Assembly (NCBI GenBank): GCA_034114085.1
Contig: JAXEWB010000024.1
Location: 11,405 to 75,404, forward strand
DNA length: 64,000 bases
Reading direction: 5' to 3'
Source: Sphaerochaetaceae bacterium
GTDB lineage: Bacteria; Spirochaetota; Spirochaetia; Sphaerochaetales; Sphaerochaetaceae
A program made the translations under genes and the position numbers. The notes beneath the pieces were generated by a model. It was not told the DNA's origin and searched no databases. It saw nothing but the letters and a program-made list of their open reading frames with translations. Positions 34,439-46,324 of this stretch are shown here, piece after piece; position 1 is the first letter of the stretch, and the number at the start of each line of letters is the position of its first letter.

Positions 34439-35297
34439 GATTTTTCCAGTGGTACGTGCCGGTGGAGTCGCATTGTTCTTGGCGATTCTACTGGCTTGCG
34501 TTTCCTGTTCCCGTGAAGATTTTTCGTTGCGTGAAGAACAATCTACCATCGTAGTTTCGGTCGATGTCGATAGTTCCGGCGCTTTTTCGCCTGCACGGTA
34601 TTCTTTGTCCTTGTATGTGGATGTTGGTTTTACCATAGAACCGGAGGAACTCCAGTTTTCCGTCACCACTCCTGACGGTCTGGATAATTGGGAGTTCTTT
34701 CCCGCTCTGATTGAGTTTGATGGTGTTCGGTGGCTTGGTCATTCGAACATATCTCTAGGTGCGGAAGTGCCTGTACCAAAGGGCGACTGGTCGTTGCGGT
34801 TGTTCCTGAAAGACGGGCGAACGATAGAGCATTCCTTTTCCGTTGCGTATGATGGAGTATCACCCGTATCCTATCCCGTCGTAGCTTTCGCTTCGTCAGC
34901 CGACGGGCAGCGTGTCGTGGTATTGACGACTTCTGGTCAGCGAGAAGCTATGCGGAACGTACTACTGGATGTACCGCGGGAGCTGAATGAGAAACTTCTG
35001 CCCGTCGTCCATGCCGATTATAGTGGCATGCCGGATTCTTCCGGTTCCAGTACCCTTGTACCTGCCGTTTCCGTCGCCCCTCCGTCTTCCTTCGCCCAGT
35101 CCGTTTCGGTCGCATGGAACTTTGAGCTGATGAATCAGACAGGGGAGATGCTCTACCAGGGTGAAATATCCCCGGGCCTTCATTCTCTGACGGAGCTAGG
35201 GGGGACCCTGTGGGACAATGCGAAAACATTGGTCCTGTATCGGTATATTCCTGAGTCCCGCATCACGTTCGTCTGTCGGCAGACGTTACGCGATTAA
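34431..35297 (+). CDS. hypothetical lipoprotein
   Basis: The ATG overlaps the end of the upstream gene. The signal peptide has a lipobox (VALFLAILLAC-VSCS). I recognise no domain. The stop overlaps the mutL stop on the opposite strand (TTAA). Confidence 0.6.
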   Translation: MHRIFPVVRAGGVALFLAILLACVSCSREDFSLREEQSTIVVSVDVDSSGAFSPARYSLSLYVDVGFTIEPEELQFSVTTPDGLDNWEFFPALIEFDGVRWLGHSNISLGAEVPVPKGDWSLRLFLKDGRTIEHSFSVAYDGVSPVSYPVVAFASSADGQRVVVLTTSGQREAMRNVLLDVPRELNEKLLPVVHADYSGMPDSSGSSTLVPAVSVAPPSSFAQSVSVAWNFELMNQTGEMLYQGEISPGLHSLTELGGTLWDNAKTLVLYRYIPESRITFVCRQTLRD

Positions 35298-37207
35298 GTC
35301 CTTCCTACCGCCTGCCATAGCTCCTGCTTGCTGATTCTGACCAGAAACGTCCGGCCATGGGGGCAGCAAGGATCCTGCATGGCGAATACTTTTTCTAGAA
35401 TCGCTTTCGCCGTATATGCGTCTATGGCATCCCCGTCTTTGATTGCCGCGTGACAGGCGATGATCGCGTAAAGTCCCTTTTCTATTTCATCCAGATCTCC
35501 CGTCTGCGTGCTGATGAACCGTACAATTGCCTGCTCCACCGGTTTGCATAACGCAGGAAGCGACGCAAGTTCCCAAAGCAGATCTTCCGGTCTGGACAGC
35601 TCCATGCCAAACTCAGCGTATATGTAGGAATTCTCCTGCAAAAACATATCAACATCCCTGTCTACTTCAAAAGATAGCGGTACCATCAGTTTCTGGATGT
35701 CCTTGTGTTCCTTGATTTCATCGAACAGAATCCGTTCATGGGCGGCATGCTGGTCCACCAAGTAGATGTCGTCCCCCTTCTGTGCTATGAGAAAAAGACT
35801 GAATGCTTGACCGAGATATGTAAAAGCTTGTTCCTCCATTGTCTGCGCCATCCACTCCGATGCGTCAGGACTCCGACGGTCGGCTATCGCCTGAAGCGAA
35901 TCTTCACGTTCTACGACAGGTCTCGCCTCATTCTGGCGCTGGGGATGAAGCATGGCTTTCGCCTTCGCGAACCATGCGGGGTCGCTCGGGCGTTGCTCCT
36001 GGGGGGACGAGCCGGTTCCCCTCGTGCCAGAACCGCCGCCCGTCCCTGCGCCGTAGATACTTGGTCGGATACCAGCATAAGGTCTGTCTGGCTCTGCGGA
36101 AAGGTTTCTGAAAGTCGGTTGTGAATCCTTTGGCTCCTCGTCTTGTCCGTTGGGCCGGGATTGTCCAAGCTCCAGCTGTGCGGCTCCTTGGTGCGCCTCT
36201 ATCCTAAGCCGGGGAATTGCCCTGCGAACCTGAGTTCTGACCATCTCGACGACTTGATGATGTATCTCCGCCTTGTTGCGGAGCTTCACTTCACGCTTCG
36301 CCGGGTGAATGTTGAAATCGACGAGGGTAGGATCGACCGTCACAAACAGGTAGCAGTACGGATAACTGCCTCCGGGTAGCATTTCCCCGTATCCGTAGAC
36401 CACCGCCTGAACTAAAGCGAATTCCTCCACTGGGCGATTGTTTATATAGATTTTGATATGGGATCTGTCCGAACGGTAACATGCGGGTGTAGAAGCTACC
36501 GCGTACAACGAAAATTTTCCCGCTGTATCATACAGTTCCAAAGTCTCTCCGCGGACAAGATTCTTGTCGGTGGCGAGAGCATCAAGCACCCGGTCCTTCT
36601 TTGAAGCCGGCGGCAGATGAAGTCGCAGAACATCATCCGCATAGAACTTGAATTCTATATCGGGAAAAGCCAAAGCCTTTTCTGCCATGACGTTTTTGCA
36701 CATCGTGGCTTCGGTGGACGGACGCTTGAGAAACATTCTGCGTGCGGGGATATCATGGAACAAGTCTTCGACATCTACTTGCGTCCCCTTGCCCGGTCCC
36801 CCCGGCGCCACAGGACCTTCCGTCCCGTTGTCTACCGTAATCTGCCACGGCGTTCCTTGCGCCCTGCTGCTGGCAATAGTTACTCTTGCGCAGGCGGCGA
36901 TACTGTAGAGTGCTTCGCCCCTGAACCCCATCGTAGAAAGATGATACAGATCGTCCAGCGTGGAAACCTTGCTGGTCGCATGACTTTTGCAGCATAACGG
37001 CAGGTCTTCCTTGTCGATGCCGTCTCCGTCATCGATGACCGTTATTCGTTTCAGCCCCCCCTCCTGGACATACACGCCGATCGAGGCCGCATGGGCGTCA
37101 ATGGCGTTGTCGATCAGCTCCCGTACTACGGACGACGGCCGTTCTATCACTTCCCCCGCGGCGATGCGTTGTGCGACGATCGGGTCTAGCAATTGAATTC
37201 TGTTCAT
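35294..37207 (-). CDS. mutL: DNA mismatch repair protein MutL
   Basis: The GHKL ATPase N-terminus is IQLLDPIVAQRIAAGEVIERPSSVVRELIDNAIDA...DDGDGI. The C-terminal dimerisation/endonuclease region is QHAAHERILFD and CPHGRTF. Confidence 0.95.
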   Translation of the reverse strand: MNRIQLLDPIVAQRIAAGEVIERPSSVVRELIDNAIDAHAASIGVYVQEGGLKRITVIDDGDGIDKEDLPLCCKSHATSKVSTLDDLYHLSTMGFRGEALYSIAACARVTIASSRAQGTPWQITVDNGTEGPVAPGGPGKGTQVDVEDLFHDIPARRMFLKRPSTEATMCKNVMAEKALAFPDIEFKFYADDVLRLHLPPASKKDRVLDALATDKNLVRGETLELYDTAGKFSLYAVASTPACYRSDRSHIKIYINNRPVEEFALVQAVVYGYGEMLPGGSYPYCYLFVTVDPTLVDFNIHPAKREVKLRNKAEIHHQVVEMVRTQVRRAIPRLRIEAHQGAAQLELGQSRPNGQDEEPKDSQPTFRNLSAEPDRPYAGIRPSIYGAGTGGGSGTRGTGSSPQEQRPSDPAWFAKAKAMLHPQRQNEARPVVEREDSLQAIADRRSPDASEWMAQTMEEQAFTYLGQAFSLFLIAQKGDDIYLVDQHAAHERILFDEIKEHKDIQKLMVPLSFEVDRDVDMFLQENSYIYAEFGMELSRPEDLLWELASLPALCKPVEQAIVRFISTQTGDLDEIEKGLYAIIACHAAIKDGDAIDAYTAKAILEKVFAMQDPCCPHGRTFLVRISKQELWQAVGRT

Positions 37208-37213
37208 GCTGTC

Positions 37214-37222
37214 ATTGTACCA
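37214..37222 (-). promoter_or_regulatory. extended -10 element (TGgTACAAT) immediately upstream of mutL
   Basis: On the minus strand the sequence is TGGTACAATgacagcATG. The -10 ends 6 nt before the ATG, and no Shine-Dalgarno is present. Confidence 0.4.
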
Positions 37223-37232
37223 CATCTGCATG

Positions 37233-37280
37233 GAAAAAGTAAAAAGGACCGCGCTCAGCCATGGGACGTTCGCGCGATCC
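37233..37280 (-). terminator. probable terminator after the 1333-aa gene
   Basis: On the minus strand the stem is GGATCGCGC/GCGCGGTCC (one G-U pair) with a 17-nt loop. It is followed by TTTTTACTTTTT. Confidence 0.5.
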
Positions 37281-37306
37281 TCAGTTTTGATCCATCCAGA
37301 CAAGAG

Positions 37307-40300
37307 TTAGAAGCCGATCTTGACTCCCATGGAGAGCGCGGGCTTGACGTTTCCAGTCGGTTTGCCGTCTGTATCGTAGACCTCGGTGGTCGATATCCTT
37401 CCAGTTACAGTGGCAAGCCCCGCCTTGATATCGAGCTGGCCGTATGCCACCGCGTTCTCATTGACGAAGAACGCATTCAGTCCGCCGAGGAGGGACGGCC
37501 TGGTATTGAACAGGCTCCTGATCTCACTAAAGATATTCTGTTTCACGAAGCCGGCGGAGACATCGACGACCGAAGTGCTGATTTTCAATTCAAGGTTGAA
37601 TTTGTCTCCGACATAGCTGAGGCTTGAGAAGTTCGGCAGATCGACGTCAAGGATATAACCAGTATGGATCGAGAACACATTCGAGGCGTATCCGAACGCA
37701 ACTTTACCGAAGAAGGTCCTGGCGGCGGTTTCGACTCCGACGAAATCAGTGTTGCGCCGCAAATAGTATTCATCGAACATTCCATAGGAGAGGATGCCGG
37801 ATTGGATTCCTCCCGCTAGCGTAAAATTGAAGTTGCCGAATGTTCCGTCAAGAGAGCCCGCGAGCAGGTAATTTTTCAATTGTGAGTTCTCGTCAAGCAA
37901 CAAGAACTTGTTGCCGGCGGTCCCGCTCAGTTGCGCTGCTGTTGAAGCATGGATGCCAAGGGACAGGGAATCAAGCCCCTTGTTGTAGATGATTGGTAGA
38001 GTGATGTCCACCGTGGGATACAGCCTGAAGGCTTCATAGGATGGTCGTTTCGCCTGCGCAACGGCCGATATGCCAATCTTGAACGGATAGCTCATCGCGA
38101 TTGGTTTCGCGGAAATGGCAAGTCCGGCCAAGGTCGGGAACGTCATGTCATCAATGAACAGTTCATACCCGAAGTAGAGGGTGTTCAACCTGTTGTACAA
38201 CGGCAATGCGGTAAAATACGGTGCTTCGATGTCGGGCAGGATGTTGTCAACCAGCGTACCCCCCGCGAACGTGAGGGCCTGTTCCCTGTCCATGAGCAGG
38301 TAGAAGGAGCTCAACGGTTTACAGATACGCAGGTGTTCGACAAGATTGAACACATCGGTTACGAGATCGAGCACCTTTTGCGGAGTTGAAAGGGAACTTG
38401 TATCGAACACACCGAAATCCCAGAACCTGTCGCCTCGCGGCGCATACCATGAAGCGGGATCGAATACTGTATGATAGCCGAGGCTGGCACCGAAGTTAAT
38501 GCCGACTCCTAGGGAGAAATTATCGGAATCAAATAGCAATACCGGTTTGATGAACAACATTTGGTCATTGGAATTCTTGTTCGACGGGGTAGATGAGAAC
38601 CTGCGGTTCACATAGGTCGCCCCGATGCTGCCAGAAATCTTGACTTTACCTTCTTTGGTCAATAGAGGGGATTCTCCGAATTGCGGGAACGTCCCCGTTC
38701 CAAGCCGCATCGTCATGCCGAGGTCCAGGACCGGTGCTATGCCCATGTTCGTCTGTCCCGGCGTAGTCTTTGCGGTGGATAGCTTCATGTCGAGCCGAAC
38801 CGCGCCGGCGTCATACTCCGCATAGGCGTATACGTTGGTGTATTCGGGATTCAGAAACGCGCCGATTTTTTCACTGGCGCTACCGCTTCCTGTGAACAAG
38901 GCACTGTAGGCGCCGATCATGTCAATCTGCTGGAGTCCTGCCCCAAAACTCCACGCCGTCCCTGCGTACCCAAGCTCCAACGATGAAATGTCAGCCTTTC
39001 TTCCATGCGCATCGCCGGCGAGCGGCGCCAGTCCAAAGTCTCCGGAAAGCTTGAATGGTAGGTTCCACGAACCGGCAATCTGGAAACCGTTGACCGCATA
39101 GGAACCATTGAGCATGAGGTCGAGGATATTTCCAGTCGTCATGGGTTTTCCACTGTAGGAGGTGTTGTTGATCAGATTCGATACAACCTTACCTCTGTTG
39201 AACGCTACTGTAGCACCGAGTTTCGCACCGCCGAAAGTTGCATCAAGACCGGCGCTAGCGAGGAAATTCGGAAATTTCTCCATGAGGGATGCCGCGTCTT
39301 TGTCATAGATATCCGAAACCTTGAAGTCCGGGTAGGCTTGCAGGTACAACGCTCCGCCGATATTCAGGTTCATCCTTAGCTTCCGGTTGTTGACTAGCGG
39401 GAAACTGAAATCCAAGGAAGGATACAAATCCACTACGAGGCTTGCGGATGGTCTTGATAGAACGACAAGGGAGGATATCCCGATACTGAACGGATATGCC
39501 TGAGTCGGTGTAAAACGGAAACGGACGCCACCGGTCTGCTGTCTGTTCGCCAGCAGGTCGTTCAAGTAGAGATCGTCGAAATATATCTGATGCCCGTACC
39601 AGGAGGTGTTCACCTGATTGTAGAATCCAAGCATCGACGTCTTGTCAAAACGATGGTTGATGCCTCCCATCATGGAGTTGACGCCGAAGCTGATCGGAGA
39701 AGTCGTATCCACGTTGAAATATACTTTGCCTGATGTCGTTCCGAACTTGAAATAGTCAATGAAACTGGTAATCGACGCAATAGTGTTCAGTGGAGAGGAC
39801 GCATCGAACTTCAGCGTTCCACCAATATCTTCCCATTTCAGGGAACCTGTCGTACTGAGTGTCGCCCGGAGTCCCAGTTTAAAGGTATTGTAGCTGAAAT
39901 ACGGCTTGACGGCGATCGTGGAAAGCGGCTGCACATCCGCGTCAGCGGATGAACCGTCATAATGGAGCGAATAGGAGAGGGCCACCCCCGCGTCGAGCTT
40001 GGTCTTCTCCGGCGCAGCACCGGAAATCAATCCGCTGGGCTGTCGGACGGTGAGCTTGTCATCTTCTCCTGGTGTCGATGCCGATGTCGCTGGGGCTGCG
40101 GCAGGCTCTTCCATGGGCGTTGACGCGATGGGCTCTTCCAATATGACCTTTGGTTCTTCAAAAGATTGAACGGATGGTCGATAGTAGGATATTTTCGCCG
40201 GTGTGAACACCGGCGCTCTGGGGACGGGCTTGTTTATTGTGGGAAGCGATTCAAAAACCGGTGCTTCGGGAAACAGCGGCTTGCTTTCAGCTGTTCCTGC

Positions 40301-41308
40301 GAATAACGGAGCTTTTGGAGCTAGCGGAGAAATAGCAACGACATCGGAGAATGCCGGGGCTTTTGGTGTCATCGGGGAAATTCCGATGATGTCGGAGAAT
40401 ACTGGAACCGCTGGAATTTCCGGAACCACCGTCCCTGCAAGAACCACAGGAGCGGCTGGAATTCTGGAAACGGTTGCTTCTTCCTGTATCGCCGGCGCGA
40501 CCGTAGCTACCGGCGCCGTAGGGGCTACGGGTGTCGCAGGTGTGGCTTCATCTACCTGTTCGCCTGGCGCTGCTGGTTCAATCAGAGCCGAGGCCGGTTC
40601 GGCCAGAACCTCCGTCGCAGGAACTTCATCCACGGCTTTCGCCTCGACCGAAGCGATTACCGGCTGGACGGGTGTCCCCGGAAGGCTCGCCACGATAGCT
40701 GGGTCGGGATTGTATGCCATCGACATATATGCCTGCTGATTGACCGCCTTGGGGTCCATCAATGGAATCATCATGTCGAGGTAATAATAGGAAGGAACGG
40801 TCGTCTTCCGCTTGGTAATGACATTGAAAGCGGCGACATTTCCACCGAAGGAATATATCAATTCACCCAAATCGGAACTGACCCATATCTGACTGGTTCC
40901 CGTCACTTGGTAACGGGATACCGGCGTCACCACGTTGAGCGTCCCCGCAAAGCCTTTGTCCGTCTGGAAAATCGCCGAACCGGAGACCAGATAGAATACA
41001 GGGTCTTCATAGGTCAGCCTGCTTATCCCAAGAATCGACTGTGGTTGCAGGACGATGGCGCCCGCTGGACTTCCCAGTGCCACGATGGAGTCTTCCGTCC
41101 GCAAAATCCAGCCTTCATACAGTCCGTCGTCCAGCATCTGGTCCGGGTTTACCGCCTTGCCTTGGGAGTCGTACGCTTTGAATCCCGAGACGTCTCCGTT
41201 GGAGACGTACAACGGAGAACTGGAGAATGCCATCGAGGGCATCAGGACTATTGCTATCACAATCAACGCGAAACGAAAACCTTTATGTGTGTTTTTCATC
41301 AATTCCAC
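37307..41308 (-). CDS. giant exported protein: signal peptide, FecR-like domain, Pro/Ala-rich repeat linker, two tandem beta-barrel-like modules
   Basis: 1333 aa.
- Signal peptide: FALIVIAIVLMPSMAFSS.
- aa 30-165 resemble a FecR domain (ILRTEDSIVALGSPAGAIVLQPQSIL...LVSGSAIFQ...LNVVTPVSRYQVTGTSQIWV).
- aa 205-435 are Pro/Ala/Val-rich.
- aa 440-905 and 905-1333 are homologous modules.
- It ends ...SMGVKIGF, a terminal Phe typical of outer-membrane beta-barrels.
- An AAGGTGG RBS is present. Confidence 0.8.
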   Translation of the reverse strand: MELMKNTHKGFRFALIVIAIVLMPSMAFSSSPLYVSNGDVSGFKAYDSQGKAVNPDQMLDDGLYEGWILRTEDSIVALGSPAGAIVLQPQSILGISRLTYEDPVFYLVSGSAIFQTDKGFAGTLNVVTPVSRYQVTGTSQIWVSSDLGELIYSFGGNVAAFNVITKRKTTVPSYYYLDMMIPLMDPKAVNQQAYMSMAYNPDPAIVASLPGTPVQPVIASVEAKAVDEVPATEVLAEPASALIEPAAPGEQVDEATPATPVAPTAPVATVAPAIQEEATVSRIPAAPVVLAGTVVPEIPAVPVFSDIIGISPMTPKAPAFSDVVAISPLAPKAPLFAGTAESKPLFPEAPVFESLPTINKPVPRAPVFTPAKISYYRPSVQSFEEPKVILEEPIASTPMEEPAAAPATSASTPGEDDKLTVRQPSGLISGAAPEKTKLDAGVALSYSLHYDGSSADADVQPLSTIAVKPYFSYNTFKLGLRATLSTTGSLKWEDIGGTLKFDASSPLNTIASITSFIDYFKFGTTSGKVYFNVDTTSPISFGVNSMMGGINHRFDKTSMLGFYNQVNTSWYGHQIYFDDLYLNDLLANRQQTGGVRFRFTPTQAYPFSIGISSLVVLSRPSASLVVDLYPSLDFSFPLVNNRKLRMNLNIGGALYLQAYPDFKVSDIYDKDAASLMEKFPNFLASAGLDATFGGAKLGATVAFNRGKVVSNLINNTSYSGKPMTTGNILDLMLNGSYAVNGFQIAGSWNLPFKLSGDFGLAPLAGDAHGRKADISSLELGYAGTAWSFGAGLQQIDMIGAYSALFTGSGSASEKIGAFLNPEYTNVYAYAEYDAGAVRLDMKLSTAKTTPGQTNMGIAPVLDLGMTMRLGTGTFPQFGESPLLTKEGKVKISGSIGATYVNRRFSSTPSNKNSNDQMLFIKPVLLFDSDNFSLGVGINFGASLGYHTVFDPASWYAPRGDRFWDFGVFDTSSLSTPQKVLDLVTDVFNLVEHLRICKPLSSFYLLMDREQALTFAGGTLVDNILPDIEAPYFTALPLYNRLNTLYFGYELFIDDMTFPTLAGLAISAKPIAMSYPFKIGISAVAQAKRPSYEAFRLYPTVDITLPIIYNKGLDSLSLGIHASTAAQLSGTAGNKFLLLDENSQLKNYLLAGSLDGTFGNFNFTLAGGIQSGILSYGMFDEYYLRRNTDFVGVETAARTFFGKVAFGYASNVFSIHTGYILDVDLPNFSSLSYVGDKFNLELKISTSVVDVSAGFVKQNIFSEIRSLFNTRPSLLGGLNAFFVNENAVAYGQLDIKAGLATVTGRISTTEVYDTDGKPTGNVKPALSMGVKIGF

Positions 41309-41346
41309 CTTCTTTCTGGTCTGGCGATTTGGTACGAATCATATAT

Positions 41347-42756
41347 TTAAAAAAATGTGAGACGGAAACCGATGTCAAACTTGACGCCGGTGTTTTTCCC
41401 ATTCTCATCGAAAACTGTGGACAGCCCGAGATCAATATCCACTGGTCTGAACGTAACCAGCGCGTCCATGCCGATAGTGACGTTTTTCAACGTAATCAGT
41501 CCATTGCCGAACGGTTCCGTCTCTCCGGTCAGCGTATTCTTGTGATAGCGTTTGTCATAGGTGAGGTCGAGCCCCAGGAAACTGAGCAGTTCCTTGTCGA
41601 TATGCACCCGCATGCCAAACGCATAGTTGTTCCAGTCCTTTTCGGCGCTGTAGTTCGCTTTTGCGAGGACGCCCGCATAGATTGCGGTATCCAGCACCTG
41701 TACGCCCAGCCTACCGTCAAAATGCATTTCTCCGACCCGCATCCTGTTTACCGTCAACTGCTCCGTGGTGCGCTTGTTGAAGCCCGCCTCAAAATAGCCG
41801 GGGATGAATCCGTTGCCAGTGGGGAACGTCACCGCTCCGTTGAACAATATCCATGGCGTGACGGTTCCCCCGAGTCCTAGTCTGAACGCATGGGATGCGC
41901 CAAGTACCTTCTGGTCGGGGAACTGTATGATGAAGTCGCTGTAGAACGAAAGGCTGACCCACTTCTCCGAGAGCAACGGAAGCACGATGTCCACCGCCGC
42001 ATTGGTGAGCGGGGAGATTGAGTCGGTCACGACTTGCTTCCCTGTTATTTCATCTAACCCGAAAATGGAATGTCCGTAGGGATCCGTCACGAACGAGAGG
42101 CCGACTTCCATGTCCTTGATCACAGGTACCGTTGTCGCCGTACATGGACGGACGAACAACCGCGAAGCGAGCAGGGACGGATGGAACAGGTCATCGGATA
42201 TGAATTCCATACCGAGCCATGGAAAATCGAACGCCTTTGCATCTAGCTTAAAGGTAATCCCCGGTCTGGTCGTTCGCCTGTCCACGGTTTTGTCGTGATA
42301 TGAGGTAAGGAGCGCGCCGTCGCCCATCGTCACACCTGTCAGCTTGCCCCAACGAAAATAGATCTCATCGTTCCGACTGCCGTAAGAGATATAGTTAATG
42401 ATACCGCTGTAATGGCTGGCGACCCGCATTGCATAGGAAAAGTCGCTTTCCTCTGGTTCCCGCGTCGGAGGCAGCCAGTTGTCCGGCCAGAACCCGAAAT
42501 CGGATGCAAACGGATTGACTCCGAAGAACAGGTAGGCGTCGAGTTGCATGGCGAATTTGCCGTAGGAGAACGACGGGCTGATCTCCAGCCCCAACTTGTG
42601 GCTCGCGTTTTTGATATCAGGGACGTTTTGCTGTTGGGTGAGCGTGTAGTTCAGTCCAAGACCGAGCCGGAATTTCGAAGACTGCGCGGTGAGCGCTATC
42701 GTTGATGAAACCACGCAGAGCAGGCAACACAATAGAACGACTCTTGTCTTTTTCAT
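41347..42756 (-). CDS. predicted outer-membrane beta-barrel protein, single-module paralog of the downstream giant gene
   Basis: 469 aa with signal peptide VVLLCCLLCVVSSTIALTA. Beta-strand-like alternating pattern throughout. The C-terminus is KFDIGFRLTFF. It shares module landmarks with the 1333-aa protein (FISDDLF...LLASRLFVRP, VGLSFVTD, VDIVLPLLSEKWVSLSF). Confidence 0.8.
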   Translation of the reverse strand: MKKTRVVLLCCLLCVVSSTIALTAQSSKFRLGLGLNYTLTQQQNVPDIKNASHKLGLEISPSFSYGKFAMQLDAYLFFGVNPFASDFGFWPDNWLPPTREPEESDFSYAMRVASHYSGIINYISYGSRNDEIYFRWGKLTGVTMGDGALLTSYHDKTVDRRTTRPGITFKLDAKAFDFPWLGMEFISDDLFHPSLLASRLFVRPCTATTVPVIKDMEVGLSFVTDPYGHSIFGLDEITGKQVVTDSISPLTNAAVDIVLPLLSEKWVSLSFYSDFIIQFPDQKVLGASHAFRLGLGGTVTPWILFNGAVTFPTGNGFIPGYFEAGFNKRTTEQLTVNRMRVGEMHFDGRLGVQVLDTAIYAGVLAKANYSAEKDWNNYAFGMRVHIDKELLSFLGLDLTYDKRYHKNTLTGETEPFGNGLITLKNVTIGMDALVTFRPVDIDLGLSTVFDENGKNTGVKFDIGFRLTFF

Positions 42757-42798: not shown

Positions 42799-42827
42799 AT
42801 TATCAAGTATACCCGATTGGCTGACAA
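42799..42827 (-). promoter_or_regulatory. sigma70-like promoter for the two beta-barrel genes
   Basis: On the minus strand the elements are TTGTCA, a 17-nt spacer and GATAAT. The -10 lies about 45 nt upstream of the ATG at 42756. Confidence 0.5.
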
Positions 42828-45487: not shown

Positions 45488-45749
45488 CGTCCTTTAAGTG
45501 GGGATTGCGTCCTTTATGTGGGAGCTACCTGTCGCCTACGTCCTGTATCTATCGATTACGTCCTTTATGTTGTTGCTACGTCCTTTATGTCGGGATTGCG
45601 TCCTGTATGATGGGATTACGTCCTTTATGTCGGAGCTACCTGTCGCCTACGTCCTGTATGTCGGGATTACGTCCTGTATGTCGGGATTACGTCCTGTATG
45701 TCGGGATTACGTCCTGTATGTCGGGATTACGTCCTGCTTGCTGTTGCTG
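45488..45749. repeat. array of 12 head-to-tail tandem repeats, 20-bp unit, consensus CGTCCTGTATGTCGGGATTA
   Basis: Units start at 45488, 45508, 45539, 45559, 45579, 45599, 45619, 45650, 45670, 45690, 45710 and 45730.
- Four identical copies lie at 45650-45729.
- Copies diverge progressively toward the 5' side.
- Two 31-nt units (45508-45538, 45619-45649) share the same extra segment AGCTACCTGTCGCC. Confidence 0.95.
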
Positions 45750-45859: not shown

Positions 45860-46324
45860 ATGCGTCGAACCTGTATCGTTGGTGTTGCGGCATTTCTATT
45901 GCTTTTGATGCCCGTAGGTACGTTGAGTGCCGCGGTGGGCGTGCGGGATTATCTGCCGTCACGATCAGCTCCTGCGATTCTTCCTGTGGATTCAGTTGCC
46001 GGGCGTTTGGTCGAAGTATCTTCCGATCCGTTGTTGGAGCGGTGTGTCGAAGCGTTTTCCCAGCCTTGGTCGGCGCAATGGGTCGCGACCTATGTGGAAC
46101 CATCCGTCCGGTCTATGTTCACACATACTTGGGATGCAATGATGGTCGAGCAGCTGCCTGTTTCCTGTTTATTGTGTTCCGCTCCTGTCGGGGACGCCTC
46201 GACCAAGACGGTCGCCGTCAGATTCTTTCATTCGCAAGACAGTGCTTCCAGTGCTTATTCGCTCATTTGGAGTCTGTCCGAGACTGATGGGCAATGGTAT
46301 CTGATTGCGATGAGCGTTCTGTAG
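45860..46324 (+). CDS. hypothetical secreted protein
   Basis: 154 aa with signal peptide (IVGVAAFLLLLMPVGTLSA-AV). I recognise no domain. Confidence 0.55.
   Translation: MRRTCIVGVAAFLLLLMPVGTLSAAVGVRDYLPSRSAPAILPVDSVAGRLVEVSSDPLLERCVEAFSQPWSAQWVATYVEPSVRSMFTHTWDAMMVEQLPVSCLLCSAPVGDASTKTVAVRFFHSQDSASSAYSLIWSLSETDGQWYLIAMSVL

Follow-up and report, generated by a model that had tools for sequence, protein, structure and literature searches.

We analysed a 64,000-nucleotide (nt) stretch of DNA from a Sphaerochaetaceae bacterium (contig JAXEWB010000024.1, positions 11,405 to 75,404 of the forward strand; hereafter the window), in which two co-oriented genes lie directly upstream of mutL. The first encodes a protein of 469 amino acids (aa), here called the small protein, and the second a protein of 1330 aa, here called the large protein. 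The locus holds two members of an uncharacterised family, whose named members all belong to Spirochaetota, built on a module of about 440 residues that is predicted to form a beta-barrel. After its signal peptide, the large protein appears to consist of a FecR-like, beta-rich domain, a repeat-containing tether, and two tandem barrels. The coordinates of these features are collected in Table 1.

Three homologous modules and their predicted fold

The original prediction, made from the DNA letters and their translations, held that a module of about 469 aa is duplicated inside the large protein, and self-comparison of the protein gave highly significant support to this claim. A BLASTP comparison of aa 430-905 with aa 880-1333 returned E 1.3e-15 with 22% identity over 374 aa, and hhalign comparison of the family of the first module (module A) with that of the second (module B) gave 99.3% probability and E 5.2e-20 over 384 columns. 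The six landmark motifs named in the large protein lie exactly at residues 576/1050, 604/1073, and 627/1095, and the four motifs named in the small protein are likewise present. The small protein had also been read as one further copy of this module, a claim that direct tests supported weakly but that became solid by transitivity. Directly compared with the modules, the small protein gave E 3e-4 over its first 175 aa by BLASTP and 9-13% probability (E about 0.003) by hhalign. For the transitivity test, each profile was set by hhalign against the C-terminal module of relatives of about 740 aa, a subgroup of 37 sequences. The small-protein profile matched this module at 98.9% probability (E 2.7e-17), module A at 96.1% (E 2.8e-9), and module B at 99.6% (E 1.1e-23). 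In addition, many distant members contain one region that is matched by the module-B profile and the small-protein profile alike. Since all three match the module of the ~740-aa relatives, the three modules of the locus are homologous by sequence comparison.

The module had been left without assignment to any named outer-membrane protein family, and profile searches of Pfam, NCBIfam, and PDB sequences agreed, yielding neither LptD, BamA, nor any other such family. Scans of both window proteins against Pfam and NCBIfam at E values up to 1 produced nothing but a sub-threshold FecR match, with no match to POTRA, LptD, TPR, usher, or Pfam Autotransporter domains. Likewise, searches of PDB sequences with the module profile, the N-terminal 426 aa, and a broad family profile returned nothing significant.

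We used AlphaFold2 to model the mature small protein from a 123-sequence alignment, which gave a mean predicted local distance difference test score (pLDDT) of 85.7 and a predicted template modelling score (pTM) of 0.83. In this prediction, about 20 long strands of 10-14 residues are accompanied by a few short helices. When the model was compared with the PDB by Foldseek, all 50 matches listed were membrane beta-barrels, nearly all of them bacterial outer-membrane proteins: AlgE came first, followed by TonB-dependent receptor barrels, OmpG, LamB, porins, and BamA. A model of modules A and B together, built from an 8-sequence alignment, was of low confidence (pLDDT 43, with long beta-hairpins at pLDDT 50-78), and Foldseek matched this low-confidence model to outer-membrane barrels only. 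Structure prediction thus points to a barrel-type rather than a soluble fold, on the small-protein model above all and with the low-confidence A+B model in agreement.

Other properties of the proteins are consistent with this fold. A Kyte-Doolittle scan (19-aa windows, threshold 1.6) picked out the signal peptides only, save for a marginal value of 1.62 at aa 286 in the spacer. Both proteins have the signal peptide and C-terminal Phe that had been noticed at the outset (...FRLTFF and ...MGVKIGF), and the last strand of module B, as read from the sequence, alternates hydrophobic residues up to its terminal Phe. Among 149 representative proteins, the last residue is Phe in 91 and Tyr in 8. We conclude that the module is most likely an outer-membrane-type barrel outside any described family, with putative closure and about 20 predicted strands, and that this unit of about 440 residues most probably sits in the outer membrane.

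The FecR-like domain, its tether, and the control signals of the pair

At the domain level, the proposal that the large protein begins with a FecR-like domain was supported by profile comparison and by Pfam matches in relatives. The window protein itself scored 13.2 bits against the FecR model PF04773 (E 0.12), below the cut-off of 24, and the model matched weakly in four of eight close homologues (best E 0.036). Profile-profile comparison of the N-terminal domain of the window family with that of relatives gave 96.8% probability and E 2.9e-10, and four of the ten relatives tested against PF04773 scored above the cut-off, at 32-38 bits, with one more just under it at 23.0. In precomputed Pfam annotation, PF04773 is assigned to most of the 120 listed relatives, and the named ones are called 'FecR domain-containing protein'. 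The best-scoring named kin were LipL45 and Lsa33 together: the LipL45 model (NF033165) matched 29 of 37 relatives (best E 1.5e-17), and the Lsa33 model (NF047849) matched 32 of the 37 (best E 2.1e-15). Judged by these profiles, the N-terminal domain is FecR-like and of the leptospiral LipL45/Lsa33 type.

We considered, and rejected, a role for the large protein as an anti-sigma factor of the FecR type. Its cleavable signal peptide is followed directly by the FecR-like domain, with no clear second hydrophobic segment. In the immediate neighbourhood of the pair, in the window and in relatives, no gene for an extracytoplasmic function (ECF) sigma factor or a TonB-dependent transducer adjoins it. 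The lack of a cytoplasmic anti-sigma domain, of a transmembrane helix, and of a neighbouring sigma or TonB-dependent receptor gene indicates that the protein is not a regulator of this type.

The proline-rich spacer, first put at 230 aa, measures about 225 aa and contains 17% Pro and 17% Ala. Within it, repeat units begin at aa 299, 315, 331, 347, and 363 and together span aa 299-378 (PAVPVF.., PKAPAF.., PKAPLF.., PEAPVF.., and PRAPVF..); a tandem repeat at the DNA level was looked for in the tether and was not detectable. Tether length among family members ranges between about 90 and about 600 aa, and some tethers include enzyme inserts. In relative P0085 (aa ~250-480) and in relatives P0093/P0298, a metallophosphoesterase/5'-nucleotidase-type domain lies between the FecR-like domain and the barrel, and the JGI name of the latter is 2',3'-cyclic-nucleotide 2'-phosphodiesterase, 5'-nucleotidase family. 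The presence of enzyme domains in this position implies that the tether can carry cargo domains, and its variable length together with these inserts fits a flexible spacer with periplasmic cargo.

Table 1. Features of the barrel gene pair and its surroundings, in window coordinates
Feature	Position	Strand	Basis
469-aa stand-alone barrel gene (small)	41347..42756	-	Open reading frame; GGGAGG ribosome-binding site 5 nt before ATG
Small protein, signal peptide, aa 1-24	42685..42756	-	Cleavage after ALTA; only segment above 1.6 (Kyte-Doolittle) in the protein
Small protein, predicted barrel module, aa 25-469, end ...RLTFF	41350..42684	-	AlphaFold2, Foldseek, hhalign
Large-protein gene, 1330 aa from ATG 41299	37307..41299	-	Open reading frame and homologue starts
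Large protein, signal peptide MKNTHKGFRFALIVIAIVLMPSMAFS, signal peptidase I type	41222..41299	-	Hydropathy; AFA/AFS sites kept in homologues
FecR-like domain, LipL45/Lsa33 type, aa 30-205 (1333-aa numbering)	40694..41221	-	Profile comparisons
Pro/Ala-rich low-complexity tether, aa 206-428	40025..40693	-	Composition; length and sequence vary among homologues
Five tandem 16-aa repeats P-x-A-P-x-F inside the tether	40175..40414	-	Exact 16-residue spacing
Predicted barrel module A, aa 429-870	38699..40024	-	Module HMM domain boundaries; hhalign against B
Predicted barrel module B, aa 884-1333, end ...MGVKIGF	37310..38659	-	Module HMM boundaries; hhalign to ~740-aa relatives
Sigma-70-like promoter match, TTGTCA / 17 nt spacer / GATAAT	42799..42827	-	Upstream of small gene; consensus match
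mutL, downstream neighbour	35294..37207	-	Probable start MNRIQLLDP..., 99 nt past large-gene stop

The two genes had been described as co-oriented, 469 and 1333 aa in length, and 38 nt apart. Their reading frames and orientation stand, but the start of the large gene and the gap between the genes had to be revised. The large reading frame as listed (37307..41308, minus strand) yields 1333 aa from a GTG at 41308 that sits within a GGTGG ribosome-binding site, five bases before an ATG at 41299 (MKNTHKG...), and homologues of the large protein all start at the MKN... equivalent of this ATG. The large protein is therefore 1330 aa long, and the gap is 47 nt rather than 38. Homologues of the small protein carry AFA/G-type signal peptidase I sites. 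As for the sigma-70-like promoter assigned jointly to both genes, a match at 10 of 12 consensus positions does exist, and its sharing by the two genes has this consensus match as its sole basis; the region contains 7 promoter-like sites against 6.7 expected from shuffled sequence and is thus not enriched for them.

Small, large, and mutL are probably transcribed together. The mutL reading frame as listed (35294-37303, minus strand) takes as its start a TTG that lies 4 nt past the large-gene stop, and the conserved N-terminus of MutL (MNRIQLLDP...) is found from about 37207; the 99-nt gap holds a promoter-like site with an extended -10 TG (37243..37214). The neighbours of the pair in the window are a tilS-like PP-loop gene, an HD-domain gene, and mutL, as in relatives. 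No Rfam family was found in the 33-48 kb portion of the window. At 45501-45736, between the HD-domain gene and an open reading frame at 45860 on the plus strand, about ten 20-nt tandem repeats (TACGTCCTGTATGTCGGGAT, 76% matches, alternative period 111) generate spurious repetitive reading frames.

A gene pair conserved across Spirochaetia

Word-indexed homology searches returned 8 and 5 relatives, suggestive of a tiny family, and this impression was overturned by an exhaustive search with hidden Markov models (HMMs). The double-module profile recovered 174 representative clusters at 50% identity, one subgroup alone comprised 454 clusters at 90% identity, and a genome scan located relatives in 252 species genomes. 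All named members belong to Spirochaetota, among them Sphaerochaeta globosa (ADY13460), Sphaerochaetaceae, Spirochaetales, Sediminispirochaeta, Treponemataceae, and Gracilinema.

Examination of distribution and synteny indicated that the pair is conserved across the class Spirochaetia and tied to mutL. Gene order was scanned in 80 of the 252 species loci, and loci with enough flanking sequence were counted as testable. In every testable locus (70/70), the gene immediately before the FecR-barrel gene belongs to the small family, and mutL is the next gene downstream of the FecR-barrel gene in 71 of 76. The neighbouring reading frames in this cassette often abut or overlap, as measured from stop to stop. 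The same order of small, FecR-barrel, and mutL occurs in the window and in loci L001, L002, and L088, and the window combines all features of the cassette: a match to the module profile, an N-terminal FecR-like domain, the small gene upstream, and mutL downstream. At five loci (L066, L073, L075, L043, and L056; Treponema/Gracilinema-like and others), the pair is kept and mutL is not immediately downstream. That a few genomes keep the pair without adjoining mutL suggests that the pair itself is more tightly conserved than its link to mutL. Together, these data mark the pair as an ancient cassette across the class Spirochaetia.

The number of barrels per chain differs between lineages. In most lineages the FecR protein carries one barrel, and two were found in 43 of 156 proteins with module matches; the single-barrel form is the norm and the double-barrel form of the window is a lineage variant. 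In one Sphaerochaetaceae locus (L087:9001-13653), a protein of 1550 aa that combines a FecR-like domain with two barrels is encoded between a tilS-like gene and mutL, with no small gene. Two or three paralogous barrels are always co-encoded, with the L087 protein illustrating that the number is two or three according to lineage, and this in turn argues that each module is an autonomous barrel. In a Spirochaetaceae locus (L057:2211-9804), two copies of the whole pair lie in tandem ahead of mutL (small, FecR-barrel, small, FecR-barrel, mutL).

In lineages other than Sphaerochaeta, a further gene accompanies the pair. Immediately before the small gene, and in the same orientation, 47 of 61 testable species loci encode a protein of ~1600-1670 aa (examples are L083:2735-7558, L085:2448-7448, and the upstream flanks of L003-L077). 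This protein contains DGDG/NGNG calcium-binding-like motifs and ends in a beta-signal-like ...GLRAKITF. It gave no match in Pfam or NCBIfam, and no homologue of it was present in the 64-kb window.

A proposed envelope role and comparison with known systems

The occurrence of the family in 252 species genomes and its near-invariant place before mutL suggest that its role in the envelope is a conserved, housekeeping one. On balance, we find it somewhat probable that the pair forms a housekeeping outer-membrane complex with a tethered, periplasmic FecR-like docking domain. Both proteins would be exported by Sec and inserted by the beta-barrel assembly machinery (BAM), leaving their N- and C-termini in the periplasm, and the barrels would associate with one another and act as anchors in the membrane or as pores. 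The FecR-like domain would hang in the periplasm on its flexible spacer, which resembles the proline-rich spacers of TonB and OmpA. There it could dock a partner at the peptidoglycan or on the inner-membrane side, creating a constitutive complex that bridges or senses the envelope. A bolder version of this idea, which we put forward only tentatively as possible but doubtful, is that the pair forms the core of an unrecognised envelope machine of the Spirochaetia, made of paralogous barrels of about 20 strands and the tethered FecR-like domain, with the ~1600-aa protein encoded upstream in most lineages. Some lineages, that of the window among them, would have two complete transmembrane barrels per chain, and the loci beside mutL in pathogens (bb0209-lmp1 and TP0304) could be divergent members. 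If true, this would connect a known virulence factor and candidate vaccine antigens with an outer-membrane protein family that is so far uncharacterised.

Several points weigh against a housekeeping outer-membrane complex. The outer-membrane location of all members follows from prediction, barrel closure and strand number are putative, and the Foldseek matches of the small-protein model have low TM-scores (0.33-0.40). Given the low confidence of the fused A+B model (pLDDT 43), the choice between two barrels and one giant barrel in the large protein also depends on interpretation; we infer two separate barrels because single-module homologues exist. Leptospira ImpL63, the only characterised protein to which the module appears remotely related, is used as an inner-membrane marker because it is Triton X-114 insoluble and poorly surface-biotinylated (PMC2698987, PMC2780356), and the window proteins themselves gave no match to the ImpL63 model. 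The periplasmic position of the FecR-like domain and its docking role are derived from topology rules alone. Finally, the linkage to mutL may be historical rather than functional.

Classical autotransporters consist of a signal peptide, an N-terminal passenger, a long low-complexity repeat stalk, and a C-terminal barrel. The large protein presents its parts in just this order, with a passenger-like domain and a repeat stalk before the barrel, leading us to consider that the barrel or barrels might instead export the FecR-like domain and Pro-rich stalk to the surface as an adhesin or as an antigen that binds host or substrate. We regard this as unlikely. Although the FecR-like domain is nearest to Lsa33 and LipL45, the first of which NCBIfam calls a surface adhesin, and although some members carry a 5'-nucleotidase-type enzyme in the stalk, the predicted barrel of ~440 aa and ~20 strands differs from the 12-strand autotransporter barrel and has no Pfam Autotransporter match. 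The small paralogue has no passenger to display, and versions with two barrels fit such a scheme poorly. Borrelia Lmp1, which is positionally equivalent and has central repeats, is protease-accessible on the surface (PMC2644780), a parallel drawn from gene position.

The pair could also form an outer-membrane channel (a porin, or an exporter or importer of polymers or nutrients) for which the FecR-like domain acts as periplasmic adaptor, by analogy with AlgK-AlgE or with the periplasmic domain and barrel of PgaA and BcsC; we judge this a little less likely still. Both models have 18-strand AlgE as their top structural match, followed by OprD/Occ, LamB, and TonB-dependent transporter barrels, but the similarity is generic (TM 0.4 or less, 8-10% identity). 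Conservation within the module is highest over its first ~150 residues, which include non-strand elements that could form a plug or constriction; nevertheless, the superfamily as a whole conserves no residue but one proline, and no genes for polysaccharide synthesis or transport adjoined the pair in the loci whose neighbours were examined. Least probable of all is that these are not outer-membrane proteins but beta-rich proteins associated with the inner membrane or peptidoglycan (the protoplasmic cylinder). Their parallel would be ImpL63, which among named proteins stands nearest to the module, is recovered with the protoplasmic cylinder on fractionation, and serves as an inner-membrane marker. 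Against this, no clear hydrophobic helix is found in the mature proteins, outer-membrane barrels are the only matches to the fold model, the predicted barrels OmpL36 and OmpL37 were also Triton X-114 insoluble in the study that found ImpL63 to be so, and the link to ImpL63 is remote (28.6 bits over ~75 residues).

A housekeeping outer-membrane complex remains the reading we prefer, and the family on which it is built is of interest in its own right. Integral proteins are few in the outer membranes of spirochaetes, and any new family of barrels is a candidate for a surface antigen or an essential component of the envelope. What is new here is an uncharacterised, spirochaete-specific family of predicted barrels in an unusual combination of domains, in the window with two barrels per chain. 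The original prediction knew of no characterised example of this architecture, and our literature searches found no paper describing it: searches on FecR together with spirochaete outer-membrane proteins, TP0484, TP0304, and Lmp1 returned no description. The family has no Pfam model, and its members are labelled 'FecR domain-containing' or 'hypothetical' in databases, the first of which wrongly implies iron-signalling anti-sigma factors. If the presence of two tandem barrels in a single chain is confirmed, BAM would be handling an unusual substrate.

Several known systems share individual parts with the pair. The anti-sigma regulators FecR and PupR appear to have in common with the large protein a periplasmic FecR-type beta-rich domain (PF04773); here, in contrast, this domain comes right after a cleavable signal peptide and is joined to predicted barrels. 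LipL45 and Lsa33 are, like the large protein, exported spirochaetal proteins with a related N-terminal domain, but they are lipoproteins of ~300-390 aa without the barrel module; the large protein lacks a lipobox and carries a site for signal peptidase I instead.

Among named proteins, ImpL63 (NF047543) alone resembles the barrel module detectably, and its profile of 525 positions is similar in length to the stand-alone small protein. Ten of 37 relatives matched its model, the best at E 5.6e-7, as did a small-family protein from locus L083 (E 1.2e-4); the matched positions are roughly collinear. Against the equivalog cut-off of 1000 bits, however, relatives reached at most 28.6 bits over 75-90 residues, and the relation suggested by these profiles is at best one of remote homology. 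In the study that reported ImpL63 to be insoluble in Triton X-114, the predicted barrels OmpL36 and OmpL37 were insoluble as well; insolubility is therefore no proof of an inner-membrane location, and the assignment of ImpL63 is not decisive. The remote link even prompts one to ask whether ImpL63, the standard inner-membrane marker for leptospires, could itself be a beta-barrel protein.

In structure, the best matches to both AlphaFold models are the 16-18-strand barrels AlgE, OprD-Occ, and LamB, with AlgE matched at E 3.4e-9 by the A+B model and at E 1.9e-5 by the small-protein model (probability 1.00). Given TM-scores of 0.33-0.42, identities of 8-10%, a root-mean-square deviation above 10 A, and no sequence-profile match, this modelled resemblance is at the level of fold class only.

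In gene order, the closest parallel is bb0209-lmp1 (bb0210)-mutL (bb0211) of Borrelia burgdorferi, which has the same layout: an upstream gene overlaps the gene for a large exported protein, with mutL immediately downstream. This likeness is drawn from gene order. Lmp1 is a virulence protein whose N- and C-termini are conserved; it has a type I signal peptide and repeats in its central part (PMC2644780). Lmp1 and BB0209 have been described with TPR-like regions rather than barrels, and none of the ~1100-aa listed matches P0083, P0085, and P0101 shows the 54-aa repeats of Lmp1. In Treponema pallidum, the gene TP0304 adjoins mutL (TP0303). It contains repeats and has a high density of single-nucleotide variants (PMC10499264, PMC12482175).

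As a whole, the large protein is comparable in general architecture to BamA, LptD, PgaA, BcsC, and the ushers without being a member of any of these families; in them, an N-terminal periplasmic interaction domain precedes a C-terminal barrel. The long Pro-rich tether and the two tandem barrels predicted in one chain are not features of those families.

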